DNA of 31,100 nucleotides from assembly GCF_003334765.1 (NCBI RefSeq), contig NZ_QOWT01000040.1, one strand, 5' to 3'. Positions 1,049-7,613 of the stretch are shown piece after piece. The notes beneath the pieces were generated by a model, which made no database searches, was not told where the DNA came from, and was given only the letters and a program-made list of their open reading frames with translations. Every line of letters starts with the position of its first letter. Position 1 is the stretch's first letter. The position numbers were made by a program, and so were the translations under genes. The DNA comes from Escherichia coli (GTDB taxonomy: Bacteria; Pseudomonadota; Gammaproteobacteria; Enterobacterales; Enterobacteriaceae).

Positions 1049-1539
1049 AATATTGGAAAGGTTACTTTGTTTTGAAGTAGCCTTTCGTCCTTCAATATTC
1101 ACGATTACTTATTGCTATTACCAAGTCCAGTCGAATCGAAGAACATCTTTTATCTGAAACGACTCCTAATACCAGGTTGAAGCCACAATATCTCTCGCAT
1201 AAGTAGACCAAAGAAAAATTATGATATTAACTATGTGATTTTTTTTAGTGTTAAGTTGAATAATTATATACTGGAGAGTTTTCTGTACACTACCAATTGC
1301 TGGTTCATCTGTTCTGCCGCTGATGTTTCTGACTAATCTCCCGGTGACACAGAACTGTCCCTCTCTACCAGCCTTTATTCGACTCAATGTCCGGCTGCTG
1401 ATACGCAGTTATCCCTTCGTATCAATGACTGACTCTTAAACGCAATGCTTTGGTTGCTGGCGTATCTGACAGCTTCTTCGGCGTGAAGGTCGTTGTGTAA
1501 GTATACTTCTTGGTTTATTTAGGCTATATAAAACCATGA

Positions 1540-2436
1540 CTATGACTGGCTGTTTTCAGTAAGAGTCTTATCATCCAAAGAATTTATTCTAGAAATTCTT
1601 TTTAACTCATTAAGATAATCAACCTCGTTTTCTAAGAACCAATGAAGAACTTTAGAGTTGCCAAGTAATTTATTAATATATGACTGGATTATAACGAATT
1701 TCAACATATCTGAACCATACTCGGTTTGAAGTTTTTTCGTTTCTTCCGAAGTTGTTGCCATTTCTTGTTCCAGACGAAGTATGGTTTTTTTTATGTCCTT
1801 TTTATAGGGAGTGTTTTTCCCTTTATTTACTATCATCGATGACGGTGTTGCATCCAAGATGCTCATTGCAAATTTTTTACTATAATTATCAAAATTAATC
1901 ATTGTACCGACTGCTTCAATTTGACGAATTGGCTTCATTTTCCTCAAAACGTCAAATGTAGCCTTAGGTATAGGTTTATCAGAAAGTTTCGCAATTACAC
2001 TTGGATCTATGCCGTTCATCACATTAGCTTTATCTTTTATGGCATCAACAGATATGCCCAAAGCAGCACTAAGTTTTTCAATTGATACTTTTGCCAGAGA
2101 CTTAATTATCATTCTATGTTCTTCAACTACATTTATATGATTCACTTGTTTGTTAGGAGTGAAAGCATCATCTATGCTCGAAAGTATACATGGAGCTTTT
2201 TCTATATCTAAGTCTTTTAAAGCCTCAACCCTTAAATGGCCATCAAGTATCTTAGTGACATCTTTATCTTTGTCATAGAATACTATTATTGGTTCAATAA
2301 TACCCAAGCTTTCGATAGAGGTAACTATTTGATGATATTTATGGCTTCGCTTTACGTTTTCTAATAATTCCTTAGATGGAATTAACTTATTAGTTTCCAG
2401 GTAAATAAAATTTTTGCCAAAACGTATCTGAATCAT
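1540..2436 (-). CDS. ParB/Srx-like protein B (298 aa), third gene of the operon
   Basis: ParB-like N-terminal layout (IIEPIIV...ILDGHLRVEAL...APCIL) followed by a helix-turn-helix-like segment (SIEKLSAALGISVDAI). ATG overlaps the stop of the upstream gene by 4 nt (ATGA). Confidence 0.6.
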   Translation of the reverse strand: MIQIRFGKNFIYLETNKLIPSKELLENVKRSHKYHQIVTSIESLGIIEPIIVFYDKDKDVTKILDGHLRVEALKDLDIEKAPCILSSIDDAFTPNKQVNHINVVEEHRMIIKSLAKVSIEKLSAALGISVDAIKDKANVMNGIDPSVIAKLSDKPIPKATFDVLRKMKPIRQIEAVGTMINFDNYSKKFAMSILDATPSSMIVNKGKNTPYKKDIKKTILRLEQEMATTSEETKKLQTEYGSDMLKFVIIQSYINKLLGNSKVLHWFLENEVDYLNELKRISRINSLDDKTLTENSQS

Positions 2437-3329
2437 TTTGATACCTCTTTGTTTACTGGGTTTAATATCTGAGATGGTAGTTCTGAAAGATTCTCTTGTT
2501 CAAGTATATTTTGAAAGCTTTTATTCATCATTATGATGTTAAAAATCTCATTTATTATTAGTAGATTGGTTTTTATAAATTTCGAGTTGTTATAAACAGA
2601 TTTATGTTCAGCGATACTATTTTCATAAAGCTCAATCAACTCCTCTGCAGTCATCCTTTTTGATGGTTTGTGATAATAAAATCCGGCTGCTTTTGCACCT
2701 TTATTCCCAACTGTTCTTTGATTTAGAATGTATTTTATCTTTATAATGTCCCGACTTTTTATTAATTTTTTATCATATGCTTCGGTAAGAATATCTTGTG
2801 CTTCCTCAGTTTCACATCTTGCAAATTGCACTGCGAGATACAGAGGCAAATTACCCCGTTCGACTGCTGAGAGAAGTTTATGCTCTCCCTTATCAAGAAG
2901 CATATTAATACTGCTCACCCAGTTCGATGAATATCCAGTAATCTCACTTATTTCGGAGTCTGAAAGTCCTCTGATTTTCATGTCTTTAATCACCTGTAAT
3001 AACTCATTAGAACGTGGTCTTCTCCTTGCAATGTTTTCAACTAAACTCATAACGTAAGCATCTTCTTCTGATACATCTCTTATAATTGCTGGAATAATAG
3101 TTTCACCTAATGCAACAAGAGCCTCTATTCTCCCTTGACCACAAATTAAAGCATATTTGAAATCGTCTTCATCAATAGCTCTTACGCTTATAGGCTTGCT
3201 TAATCCTCTTTTTTTTATGCTTTCCTTTATTTCTTCATGCACTACCTTATTTCTTGTTCGTGGGTTAAGAAATTTTATTTTTGCAATCTCAATTTGAATT
3301 ATTGGGAATTCATTTTTTTCAGGCAGCAT
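2433..3329 (-). CDS. ParB/Srx-like protein A (298 aa), second gene of the operon
   Basis: Close positional match to ParB/Spo0J N-terminal domain plus HTH: PISVRAI...ICGQGRIEAL...IPAIIRDVSEEDAYVMSLVENIARR...LSDSEISEITGYSSNWVSSINMLL. GAGGG Shine-Dalgarno 7 nt upstream; start overlaps the recombinase stop by 11 nt. Confidence 0.65.
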   Translation of the reverse strand: MLPEKNEFPIIQIEIAKIKFLNPRTRNKVVHEEIKESIKKRGLSKPISVRAIDEDDFKYALICGQGRIEALVALGETIIPAIIRDVSEEDAYVMSLVENIARRRPRSNELLQVIKDMKIRGLSDSEISEITGYSSNWVSSINMLLDKGEHKLLSAVERGNLPLYLAVQFARCETEEAQDILTEAYDKKLIKSRDIIKIKYILNQRTVGNKGAKAAGFYYHKPSKRMTAEELIELYENSIAEHKSVYNNSKFIKTNLLIINEIFNIIMMNKSFQNILEQENLSELPSQILNPVNKEVSK

Positions 3330-4875
3330 ATAGTTCCCTCACTTTCATGCGAGTAATAATTTGTAGAAATTTATCAAGATTATCAAATCTATAGAGATCT
3401 AACCGAATGTTGTTTGTTTCCATCATACACATTTTACTATATTCGTTTTCAATCTTTGGTATGATATAAAAATCAAGAGGTGAAATATTTTGTGAATTCA
3501 TTCGTATAACAATTGTTATGTCTGCTTTCTGTGAGTTATCAAACCGGACTTTCCATCTAAGTTTACCTGATTTCATATGTATGCATTTAGTAACAAGGAC
3601 GGAAATTAAAAACTCATCATTGATGTAAAGCATTGGGTAATATTTATACTCGTCTATATGACAGTTACTTTTTAATATTTCGCCCTTAAAATCCTCAATT
3701 ATCTCTGAGTAAAATGATCTTAGTGCTTCATTTATTTGGAGATAGCTGTAATCATGTTCTGGCTTATAACCAATCAAAGTATATGCTCTTAAAAGACCAC
3801 CAAATCGGGTTCTATAAACAGAAGATGAAGGGCCTGTATCATCTTCATCAATGATAAAGCCTGATAGTTTTCCATTAGATTCTAATTTTTCTTTTAGCTT
3901 TTCTAATAGATCTTCATTAGTCAAATGAATGGATCGGAGCTGAATTATTTCTTGAGCTTTATTATATTTTTTCTTTGAAATAATTGGTTTATATGCCTTG
4001 TCACATCTAATCCATTCATGTTTGGGGTTTTTTACAAGCTTACTTTTTAGTTTAGATGAGGTTTTGTTATATATGTTGTTTCCAATATATTTTTCATTTG
4101 TCAAAATTTGATGTATTTTTGCACGAGTCCATGATGTTCCATTTTCTGCAGGTATGCTCTGTTCATTTAATCTCTCAGCAATAATGAATTCTGGGACGTT
4201 ACTATCTATAAAGAGATCATAGATTCTATTTACAATTTTTATTTCATTTTTTGGTCCCGGAATTAATATTACCCTATCTGTTTGAATACTCTTTCTTTTG
4301 CGGAAATTCAATATTTCTTTAGCTATGCCATTTTCGTCTACTAAAAGACGTCTCAGCCCATAACCAGCCATACCGCCTTGATGATAACCAAGCTTTATTA
4401 AATTTACTTGCCCTATAAATACCTTTTCAGATAGATTCCTGCTGTGATATGCAGCACTTGATCTTTTTATATTCAGTATAACAGAGGACTCTAAAGGGAA
4501 ATCTTTAGTGGGTATAGGTTCGGAACAATATATAAGATCTACACCATTTCTTTCAAATAGAAAGGAATAATATGCAGCTTCATCACTATTTTGAAAACGA
4601 CCAAAACGGCTCACATCATAAAATAATACAGCCTGTATATCTATTTTCTTTTGTTCTACATCGCTAAGTAACTGCTGCAAAGAATGCCTGCCTACGATAC
4701 TGACTCCGCTCTTACCTGCATCATCGTAGGTATAAGCGATTTCCATATTGTTCTTTTCAGCATAATCTTTGATATATTCAGACTGATTATGTAAAGAATA
4801 TTGCTGATGGTCGGTAGACATCCTCAAGTACTGTGCGACCCTAACTCTATGATTTTTTTCATTTCCGCTAGCCAT
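3319..4875 (-). CDS. Large serine recombinase-like protein (about 518 aa; track ORF starts at TTG 4881, first ATG at 4875)
   Basis: Resolvase-type catalytic domain motifs in the right order: YLRMSTDHQ (presumed nucleophile Ser), DDAGKSG, RHSLQQLL, VSRFGR. Then a recombinase-domain signature: GGMAGYGL ... WTRAKIHQILTNEKYIGN. GAGG Shine-Dalgarno upstream of the ATG. Confidence 0.7.
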   Translation of the reverse strand: MASGNEKNHRVRVAQYLRMSTDHQQYSLHNQSEYIKDYAEKNNMEIAYTYDDAGKSGVSIVGRHSLQQLLSDVEQKKIDIQAVLFYDVSRFGRFQNSDEAAYYSFLFERNGVDLIYCSEPIPTKDFPLESSVILNIKRSSAAYHSRNLSEKVFIGQVNLIKLGYHQGGMAGYGLRRLLVDENGIAKEILNFRKRKSIQTDRVILIPGPKNEIKIVNRIYDLFIDSNVPEFIIAERLNEQSIPAENGTSWTRAKIHQILTNEKYIGNNIYNKTSSKLKSKLVKNPKHEWIRCDKAYKPIISKKKYNKAQEIIQLRSIHLTNEDLLEKLKEKLESNGKLSGFIIDEDDTGPSSSVYRTRFGGLLRAYTLIGYKPEHDYSYLQINEALRSFYSEIIEDFKGEILKSNCHIDEYKYYPMLYINDEFLISVLVTKCIHMKSGKLRWKVRFDNSQKADITIVIRMNSQNISPLDFYIIPKIENEYSKMCMMETNNIRLDLYRFDNLDKFLQIITRMKVRELYAA

Positions 4876-5157
4876 GCACAAAACCTCATGGATGATTCAA
4901 TACAATGTAGAGGATAAAATTGATCAAATTTTAACCGAATTCAACTGTTTTATCATTGATTAGAGCGAATTTGGTAGTTCTTCGAGGTGTATGATAATCG
5001 AGAAGAGATGTGAATTATTTAGCTGATATGACCGACAGCTTTCGTTATGTGGCCTCAAGGTACCCATTTGTAAATGGCTATGCTTAGTCCACATAGGTTA
5101 ATGGTGTGATCATTAATTCTTCAAATAAATCAAGATAGTTAACCCATCATGGAAGAG

Positions 5158-6387
5158 TTATGCGGCAATAACTTTGTATTTTTGAGACGAAACATAGTCA
5201 CTCCACCATTGCATGAGAACCACACGTTCTGTGAGATACTCTGCACGATTGTAGGCTGCAATTATTTCATCTTTTTTCGAGTGGGCAAGGGCGGCTTCTA
5301 AGACATCAGTTCTAAACTTGCCACACTCCTCAGCCGCCGTTCTAGCGATTGATCGCATACCATGAGCTACAAGCTCACCTCCGAAGCCCATACGGATTAT
5401 AGCCGCATTAGCTGTTTGTTCATGCATGTGATTGAGTGGAGCTTTGATACTGGGAAAAACCCACTCTCTATGCCCGCTGATGGCTTTCATTGAATCCAAG
5501 ACTCGCAAAGATTCTTTGCTCAGTGGAACTTTGTGAGGCTTCTTCATTTTCATAAACTCCGCCGGGATGTTCCACATGCTGGTTTCTATATCAATATCTG
5601 ACCATCTTGTGCGAACAGCTTCACCAGGGCGAACCCATGTGAGAAGTTGCCACTCAATCAGTAGCCTTGTTTCTAAACGGATAGAAGCATTGTTTAGAGC
5701 AACCAGGAAGCGGGGGAGTTCGGAAGGGGGTAATGCTGGCATATTCTGTTTTTTTGGCTTGCTGAACCGTTGCCCCAGGTTGTCAGCCGGATTGAATTCT
5801 ATGAGTTCTTCTGTTGCTGCATAGCGGAAAATTTCATTCAGGCGGGATATGACGCGGCGAAGTGTTTCAAGGACACCTCGTTTTTCTATGGGGTCTAAAT
5901 GCTGTTTAAGCATTTTAGGGCGAATCTCCTTAATGGGGGTATCACCCAACGTTGGAAAGATATTTCTCTCTAGGCTTCGCCAGATGTCGTTAGCATGATC
6001 CTGGGAGATGCCTGACGTTTTGACTTTCTCATCAAGCCACTTCTTGGCTACTGCTTGAAATGTATGTTCCGTTGCATCCTTAAGGGCATTGGCTTTGTGG
6101 GTGTTATGAATTTGTGGGTCTATACCATTTGCAAGCAACGACAAGTACTCATCACGTAAAGCTCGTGCCTTCGCAAGTGTAAGGTGAGGATAGGTTCCTA
6201 AGCTCACCTTAGTTCGCTTTTTGGTCACAGGCACTGCATATCTGAAATACCAATTTTTCTTTCCTCCCTTCGCTAAGGGGGCGATTCGCAGGAGCAAACC
6301 ATCGCCGTCAAAAAGGTTAACCTCTTTCTCGGCAGGTTTGGTGCTTTTGATTTCAGTGTCAGTGAGCTTCTTAGCGATTTTTGCCAT
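5158..6387 (-). CDS. P4-family tyrosine integrase (409 aa from MAKIAKKLTDTEIK; the track ORF extends upstream to 6531)
   Basis: N-terminus typical of P4/CP4-57-type integrases; C-terminal tyrosine recombinase motifs (HGMRSIARTAAE ... AHSKKDEIIAAYNRAEY); sits directly beside the ssrA 3' end. Confidence 0.85.
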   Translation of the reverse strand: MAKIAKKLTDTEIKSTKPAEKEVNLFDGDGLLLRIAPLAKGGKKNWYFRYAVPVTKKRTKVSLGTYPHLTLAKARALRDEYLSLLANGIDPQIHNTHKANALKDATEHTFQAVAKKWLDEKVKTSGISQDHANDIWRSLERNIFPTLGDTPIKEIRPKMLKQHLDPIEKRGVLETLRRVISRLNEIFRYAATEELIEFNPADNLGQRFSKPKKQNMPALPPSELPRFLVALNNASIRLETRLLIEWQLLTWVRPGEAVRTRWSDIDIETSMWNIPAEFMKMKKPHKVPLSKESLRVLDSMKAISGHREWVFPSIKAPLNHMHEQTANAAIIRMGFGGELVAHGMRSIARTAAEECGKFRTDVLEAALAHSKKDEIIAAYNRAEYLTERVVLMQWWSDYVSSQKYKVIAA

Positions 6388-6553
6388 GTTTGGGACCCTC
6401 ATGTTTTGGACCCTTTGTGTTGGGTCCCAAAAAGGGTGCCATAACGAGTAGATTCTAGCAATTCTCGGTAGACTACTATAGACGTAAAAAAGCCCGCAAG
6501 GCTGGTTCCATGCGGGCTTGATAGACTTCACTGAACTTCAATATATCAAAAAT

Positions 6554-6916
6554 TGGTGGAGCTGGCGGGAGTTGAACCCGCGTCCGAAATTCCTACATCC
6601 TCGGTACTACATGCTTAGTCAGTCTTTACATTCGCTTGCCAGCTGCGGACGGACACGCCACTAACAAACTAGCCTGATTAAGTTTTAACGCTTCAACCCC
6701 AGGCAGGGCTTCCACGCGATCTCTTTTGGGTTTGACCTCTCTTGATCCCCGTCCTAAGAGCGGAGGCTAGGGAGAGAGGGCTCTAAGCAGGTTATTAAGC
6801 TGCTAAAGCGTAGTTTTCGTCGTTTGCGACTATTTTTTGCGGCTTTTTACGAGGCCAACCGCCCCTCGGCATGCACCTTGGGTTTCGCAAATCCCGTCGA
6901 ATCCAGAATCAGCCCC
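6554..6916 (-). ncRNA. ssrA: tmRNA (SsrA), 363 nt
   Basis: Reverse complement reads GGGGCTGATTCTGGATTCGACGGGATTTGCGAAACCC ... GGGTTCAACTCCCGCCAGCTCCACCA, i.e. the tRNA-like 5' and 3' ends of tmRNA including the CCA end. Confidence 0.92.
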
Positions 6917-7130: not shown

Positions 7131-7613
7131 TTAACGGTGGGCGTTTTTCATGATACGTGCTTTATCCACCTGCCATTCGCGCTCTTTGATATCTGAACGT
7201 TTATCGTGCTGTTTCTTACCTTTGGCGACGCCGATTTTCACTTTGCACCAGGCATTTTTCCAGTACAGGGAGAGCGCCACTACGGTATAGCCTTCTCGAT
7301 TGACGCGACCGTACAATGAGTCCAGTTCGCGCTGGTTGAGAAGTAACTTGCGGGTACGGGTAGGATCGCACACCACATGCGTGGAGGCCACGGCCATTGG
7401 CGTGATGTTAGCGCCAAACAGAAATGCCTCTCCGTCACGCAGAAGGACGTAGCTGTCGCTGATATTGGCTTTTCCTGCGCGCAGGGATTTAACTTCCCAG
7501 CCTTGCAGGGCAAGTCCCGCTTCGAACTCTTCTTCGATAAAGTATTCGTGACGGGCGCGCTTGTTAAGCGCGATGGTCGCTGAACCAGGTTTATGTGCTT
7601 TTTTCTTCGTCAT
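7131..7613 (-). CDS. smpB: SsrA-binding protein SmpB (160 aa)
   Basis: Recognised translation ([28 protein letters not shown]...); located beside ssrA. Confidence 0.92.

Follow-up and report, generated by a model that had tools for sequence, protein, structure and literature searches.

Genomic islands of the CP4-57 type, known from E. coli K-12, lie at ssrA and carry a P4-type integrase gene on the same strand, followed by variable cargo; in CP4-57, yfjH/alpA come after intA. In P4-type elements, the arm-type sites flank attL and attR, not the 3' end of int. Two further systems concern serine recombinases and ParB-family proteins. The attP and attB sites of Bxb1, phiC31 and TP901-1 are imperfect dyads of ~50 bp with a central 2-bp spacer, beside a serine recombinase gene. 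In res-tnpR of Tn3/gamma-delta and at O_B of KorB in RK2, a short conserved palindrome lies over the promoter, before an operon for a serine recombinase or a helix-turn-helix ParB-family protein. The stretch of E. coli DNA analysed here (31,100 nt, hereafter the window) resembles the CP4-57-type islands in its ssrA, its same-strand P4-type integrase and its variable cargo, and also in that homology between the islands ends at the integrase stop. However, there is no AlpA-type gene in the window, and the first cargo is a recombinase-ParB-ParB cassette with its own leader.

All genes of the region are on the minus strand, in the order smpB (7131-7613), the ssrA tmRNA gene (6554-6916), the integrase, the spacer under study, a serine recombinase and two ParB genes, so the original prediction was right to place the integrase and the operon on the same strand. 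The P4-type tyrosine integrase has 409 amino acids (5158-6387 from its RefSeq start; NCBIfam PRK09692, E=2e-133), with the stop codon TAA at 5158-5160. The large serine recombinase (518 amino acids, 3319-4875) has Pfam Resolvase and Recombinase domains, and the Pfam search found no zinc-ribbon or coiled-coil match in it. It is followed by two genes for ParB/RepB-C proteins of 298 amino acids each (2433-3329 and 1540-2436); the three genes (1540-4875) overlap by a few bases and are served by the leader in the spacer. The GC content is 46% in the integrase, 35% in the spacer, and 32-33% in the recombinase/ParB/ParB trio. The spacer is 282 bp long (4876-5157) when the RefSeq start of the recombinase, ATG at 4873-4875, is used, and 276 bp, the length originally given, when counted from TTG 4881, the farthest possible start. 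A GAGG Shine-Dalgarno sequence (4884-4887) lies 8 nt upstream of this ATG, and the segment with the ribosome-binding site and the start codon (4873-4887) is unchanged in all 12 homologous leaders that were aligned. The program-made integrase open reading frame begins 48 codons farther upstream, at GTG 6531 instead of the RefSeq ATG 6387; this extension (6388-6531, minus strand), which reaches within 23 nt of ssrA, is probably not translated.

We take the spacer to be an unremarkable leader, with a probable promoter, of a cassette that is otherwise uncharacterised. The reading that we favour, with moderate confidence, is that it serves as the leader of the recombinase-ParB-ParB operon, with a promoter/operator at 4903-4957 and a palindrome that is lineage-specific and non-essential. 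It would thus be non-coding and lead into a mobile cassette of three genes (a large serine recombinase and two ParB/RepB-type proteins), which in the ssrA island family of the Enterobacteriaceae would have become fused to the integrase module right past the integrase stop. The block at 4903-4957 would act as a sigma-70-type promoter with an overlapping operator at its A/T-rich -10, and would give a transcript with a 5' UTR of ~30-35 nt and the GAGG ribosome-binding site.

The conservation of the leader was assessed with 12 sequences from Escherichia, Cronobacter, Salmonella, Klebsiella, Enterobacter, and three metagenomic relatives. Nine of them are close relatives, including sequences with intact integrases, and the metagenomic loci L019, L020 and L023 are the outgroups; the set is small, with three outgroup lineages only, and the L019 alignment is weak upstream of 5030, where its BLAST match ends. 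Over the whole spacer, 45/282 columns vary among the nine close relatives and 164/282 among all 12 leaders. In the core block of 55 bp at 4903-4957, the corresponding numbers are 9/55 and 18/55, the latter against 58-74% in the other leader segments. Within the spacer, only this block is under detectable constraint, and in it the operon most likely has a promoter and an operator of its own.

Read on the minus strand, the core block contains an A-tract (ATAAAACAG, 4945-4953), a -35-like TTGAAT (4939-4944), and a -10-like AATTTT (4916-4921) at a spacing of 17 nt; an alternative -10-like TTTTAT (4914-4919) is spaced by 19 nt. A GATC-centred palindrome, TTGATCAA inside TGATCAATTTTA, is located at about 4915-4927. 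As a promoter, TTGAAT-17-AATTTT scores a weak 7/12, is unlisted by the promoter scan, and has an ambiguous -10 placement (17- or 19-nt spacer). Another predicted minus-strand promoter, ATGATA-17-TAAAAT (4956..4928), was rejected since the sixth base of its -10, a T, is lost in most variants. The core motif, in the form of an A-tract, TTGnAn, TTGnTT, an A/T run, TGATCAA, and TTtT, recurs at recombinases that are 60-69% identical (L025, L021, Pectobacterium L026, and Xenorhabdus bovienii L027), where the rest of the upstream region is unalignable. In every one of 11 leaders, the motif ends 39-41 nt before the start codon. That the start codon is always equally far away, although the interval is itself unconserved, is promoter-like; the aligned position in Xenorhabdus lircayensis (L008) reads TTGAGT-19-TATAAT. 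The palindrome TTGATCAA is invariant in 10/11 leaders, and in the H5, F719, FDN-11 and Enterobacter variants it is lengthened to the perfect 16-mer AAAATTGATCAATTTT. In the window, the TTGATCAA/TGATCAATTTTA palindrome occurs as a single copy, and the count of its short form is at chance level. A usable map of transcription start sites for E. coli B (BL21/REL606) was not found in the literature.

A palindrome between or over the promoter hexamers is in the usual place of a repressor site, and Spo0J, Noc and KorB bind palindromic sites via a helix-turn-helix. Residues 8-188 of the first ParB protein align with residues 21-200 of Spo0J (1vz0), over the N-terminal domain and beyond, and the protein also aligns with Noc and KorB. 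It is therefore reasonable to infer that a cassette protein regulates the operon that encodes it, and the first ParB protein may well bind a palindromic site. By analogy with ParB/KorB and with resolvase autoregulation, the operator would likely be occupied by a DNA-binding protein that the cassette itself encodes. The arrangement resembles res-tnpR and KorB O_B in having a short conserved palindrome over a promoter, here a predicted one, in front of the operon. However, in sequence the block resembles neither res subsites nor parS, NBS or O_B, the palindrome is single, and the cassette in the window has no ParA partner.

Where the cassette leader begins can be seen from several independent breakpoints of homology. 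P4-type integrases ~80% identical to that of the window are found in about 700 other E. coli genomes, and their homology to the window ends at 5156-5192, at the stop codon. The original prediction had proposed a comparison with the integrase-proximal regions of related ssrA islands, and in this comparison, homology between the islands ended at the integrase stop codon. In several strains, a piece of 244 bp from the 3' portion of a second integrase gene follows the second ParB gene and matches 5139-5382 of the window only. From the other side, the trio leader is homologous up to about 5150 in the three metagenomic relatives, whose recombinases are 87-88% identical. Upstream of their trio leader, L019 has ankyrin genes and no integrase, L020 has a remnant of the same integrase, and L023 has a remnant of a tyrosine recombinase that is only 26% identical. 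At the same position, GC steps from about 0.36 to 0.43-0.48. With independent homology breakpoints and a shift in composition, the place where the integrase module meets the leader of the recombinase cassette has the marks of a module junction in a mobile element; it lies at 5139-5157 (minus strand) and takes in the ~19 nt next to the integrase stop. As judged from these alignments, practically the whole spacer belongs to the cassette of the recombinase and two ParB genes, and moves with it even where there is no integrase or an unrelated one.

The junction is 45-110 bp upstream of the inverted repeats which had been suggested as an operator, a promoter, or an insertion junction, and the core block is 90-190 bp downstream of them, toward the operon. 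This suggestion therefore holds in part for the spacer and fails for the repeats: the spacer has a promoter/operator-like element and abuts a junction, but neither the junction at 5139-5157 nor the block at 4903-4957 coincides with the repeats, which are the least conserved part. Two other functions for the region were rejected, namely oriT, with the relaxase more than 9 kb away, and arm-type integrase sites, on position.

Both repeats are present as described: TATGTGG/CCACATA at 5046-5052 and 5089-5095, and CCATTT-GT-AAATGG at 5064-5077, with arms at 5064-5069 and 5072-5077. They are concentric around the central GT and form parts of one imperfect palindrome of 24+2+24 at 5046-5095, in which 18/24 positions are complementary. 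Their significance was evaluated with 1000 dinucleotide shuffles of the spacer. Four perfect 7-bp inverted repeats within 60 bp were seen versus a mean of 1.8 in the shuffles (p=0.16), and a 6-bp inverted repeat with a loop of <=4 has p=0.39. By itself, each repeat is at the level of chance for an AT-rich sequence of 282 bp. The 24+2+24 dyad has p ~0.001 (about 1 in 1000 shuffles), and the nesting has p=0.005. The palindrome is real and locally non-random; a comparable feature may occur once per few hundred kb. No second copy of the dyad or of its half-sites, as for an invertible segment or an att partner, was found in the window, in the strain 300709 locus (L001), in L018, or in 49 kb of the island. 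A dispersed repeat or MITE was also rejected, as genomes have a single copy of the spacer (median 1, maximum 2) and no indel is seen at the palindrome in the homologous leaders. The recombinase start region at 4869-4882 (TTTGTGCATGGCTA) resembles the palindrome centre at 5067-5080 (TTTGTAAATGGCTA), with 12/14 identical as an inverted pair, and this likeness is probably due to chance.

The palindrome has 14/50 variable columns among the nine close relatives and 37/50 among all 12 leaders. In the close relatives, it is the most variable segment of the leader, as compared with 31/232 elsewhere (28% vs 13%, Fisher p=0.018). The substitutions leave the arms mismatched: CCACATA is changed to CCAAATA in Salmonella and Klebsiella, TATGTGG is changed to AATGTTG in FDN-11, and the inner right arm is broken in Enterobacter and F719, all uncompensated; no compensatory change was found in the palindrome arms of the aligned leaders. 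Across the close relatives, the energy of the hairpin ranges from -19.8 to -8.0 kcal/mol. In L019, L020 and L023, the homologous segment is ungapped and the dyad is absent, with 11-14 of 24 positions complementary and z about +0.5. The strongest dyad, with a perfect outer stem of 10 bp and z=-4.7, is in the BL21-type leader, the commonest E. coli variant, and its strength could reflect lineage-specific selection. The palindrome is variable, uncompensated, and lost in close homologues; neither an operator nor a recombination site would show such a pattern, and nor would a conserved RNA element. In the reading that we favour, the 50-bp palindrome would have arisen in the E. coli-type lineage without being maintained by selection; it would then be neither an essential operator nor a recombination site nor a junction, and at most a weak lineage-specific RNA hairpin behind the integrase gene.

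The fate of the integrase transcript has to be considered in this connection. On the sense strand, the palindrome is predicted to form an RNA hairpin of -16.4 kcal/mol (z=-2.8), which begins 63 nt past the integrase stop. As in intrinsic (Rho-independent) terminators, a stable stem-loop is thus found soon after a stop codon. It differs from these terminators in that no U-tract follows (the bases after the hairpin are ACGAAAGCUGUCGG), interruptions break up its AT-rich stem, and the scan does not pick it up: a consensus scan of 4500-5600 on both strands found no terminator at all, which bears out the earlier statement that the integrase stop is followed by no evident intrinsic terminator. Therefore, the integrase transcript may read through into the recombinase operon; the conserved core block argues that the operon also has a promoter of its own.

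As RNA, the palindrome could have a function where the integrase transcript ends, its hairpin being either a 3'-end stabiliser or a partial (non-canonical or Rho-assisted) terminator that insulates the operon from integrase read-through; it would then have evolved only where the cassette follows an intact integrase. We regard this as unlikely, though some observations are in its favour. In the window, BL21, H5 and Cronobacter, which all have intact integrases, the hairpin reaches -16.4 to -19.8 kcal/mol with z from -2.8 to -4.7; it is weak or absent in FDN-11, L020, L023 and L019, whose upstream integrase is lacking or survives as a remnant. It is also improbable that drift led from the non-palindromic state of the outgroups to a perfect stem of 10 bp. 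On the other hand, Salmonella and Klebsiella have intact integrases, yet their hairpins are weak (-10.2 and -11.7 kcal/mol; z about -1), and phylogenetic distance confounds the relation of an intact integrase to a strong hairpin. Moreover, the hairpin segment has the highest density of substitutions with no compensatory pairs, and neither a U-tract nor a terminator in the scan goes with it. On neither strand of 4700-5350 did a search with Rfam covariance models give a match with E<=1.

It is quite improbable that the palindrome is a protein-binding site, be it a recombination site of the serine recombinase or a site that the ParB proteins would recognise as an operator or in the manner of parS. 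It adjoins the recombinase gene, its dyad is non-random, and a 24+2+24 arrangement with a non-palindromic central dinucleotide resembles attP and attB of large serine recombinases. In its length of ~50 bp, its imperfect symmetry, and its central 2 bp, the dyad agrees with the Bxb1, phiC31 and TP901-1 sites. In contrast to these, it is not conserved together with its recombinase, as it is missing at homologues that are 87-88% identical, and in the close relatives substitutions strike both of its arms freely. Furthermore, neither the window nor 49 kb of the island contains a partner for it, and the recombinase has no detectable zinc-ribbon or coiled-coil domain. Upstream of distant trio loci (pAtC58/Agrobacterium, Piscinibacter, Burkholderia, and Xenorhabdus), no comparable dyad was found; these upstream regions are short (60-90 bp) or unrelated, and those of Agrobacterium, Piscinibacter and Burkholderia have no shared motif either. 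The related proposal that leader and trio are a self-contained cassette, repeatedly placed just 3' of unrelated tyrosine-integrase genes (at the integrase stop in E. coli and at the stop of the 26%-identical remnant in L023), with the lineage-specific 24+2+24 GT dyad as the site for the cassette's serine recombinase, seems to us very improbable. Hardly more plausible is it that the spacer encodes an antisense RNA (plus strand, from TTGGTA-16-GATAAT at 4971-4998 across the palindrome and into the 3' end of the integrase) or a small protein (a minus-strand frame of 44 codons, 5094-4960): the plus-strand hexamers score 9/12 and lie inside 4958-5030, a segment near-invariant in close relatives (6/73 variable columns) and not conserved in distant ones, and the 44-codon frame appears in the list of open reading frames, but the hexamers are lost in L019 and L023, the plus strand has no terminator in the scan of 4500-5600 and no Rfam match, and the frame is not conserved, lacks a Shine-Dalgarno sequence, and in L020 is without its ATG.

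If the spacer is the leader of the operon, as we favour, it matters little in itself, being an intergenic leader with a probable promoter. Its junction shows precisely where the integrase module gives way to the cargo in an ssrA island family present in about 12% of complete E. coli genomes, and the putative cis-element TTGAAT...TGATCAATTTTA offers a handle on the regulation of a widespread, uncharacterised cassette of a serine recombinase and two ParB proteins. The spacer is found in 660/5426 complete E. coli genomes, usually once. BL21(DE3) is among them, with its island cut down to the integrase and the three genes, followed by IS1; its copy of the spacer is at NC_012971.2 2,623,754-2,624,035, where the genes are on the plus strand. 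The order of ssrA, integrase, 282-bp spacer and trio is also present in Cronobacter, Salmonella and Klebsiella, and an IS1-disrupted version of it in Enterobacter. Past the trio, the cargo of the window-type island includes NACHT and RelA/SpoT genes and a relaxase, and that of another island type includes the HXS anti-phage operon with a TIGR04141/DUF6119 gene. A search of plasmid sequences gave no match to the spacer, and the full-length recombinase had only one match in the phage collection, an unannotated record of 7.5 kb.

The trio itself occurs across Proteobacteria in mobile contexts. It is located between AbiE and Fic genes on pAtC58, directly after tniQ in a Tn7-like element, on plasmids of Burkholderia, Sphingobium and Piscinibacter, and in Xenorhabdus and Pectobacterium, and it is without a ParA partner. 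It tends to adjoin mutually unrelated tyrosine integrases, either upstream on the same strand or downstream and convergent (L023 1276-1650, L019 7830-8948, and L021 7587-8876). Since these unrelated integrases are found on either side, the trio appears to lie at island ends. A role of the trio as a defence system was considered and rejected, as PADLOC gave no match besides a weak methyltransferase-domain one for the second ParB protein. Nothing usable on the trio was found in the literature.

Right after the second ParB gene, a convergent DUF6119/TIGR04141 gene is present in E. coli (L004-L006 and L017), in Pectobacterium (L026 7332-8927), and in metagenomic relatives (L020 5726-7284; L023 5274-6866). 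In E. coli, this gene is followed by the HxsDBCA operon, which is the HXS anti-phage system (published 2026); the window-type island is without it. The 244-bp fragment of the second integrase belongs to these HXS-type islands (L004 4306-4549; also L005, L006, L007 and L017), where it lies ~64 bp after the trio and is ~80% identical to 5139-5382 of the window. It suggests tandem accretion of islands followed by deletion. In E. coli E15 (L017) and FDN-11 (L004), a diverged block with a truncated integrase, the spacer, the trio and HXS lies in a tandem island array at tRNA-Arg by yfdC, not at ssrA.

Two more strains differ from the window near the integrase. In strain SHP24, an IS3 element is found 58 bp past the integrase stop (L003 6001-6058, equivalent to 5100-5157 of the window), and the strain lacks the palindrome, the trio, and some of the cargo; this region is therefore dispensable for the host. 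In strain 300709 (L001 14222-24851), a P2-like prophage and an anti-phage dCTP deaminase gene are inserted on the ssrA side of the integrase, and the strain is otherwise identical to the window over 1400-6598.
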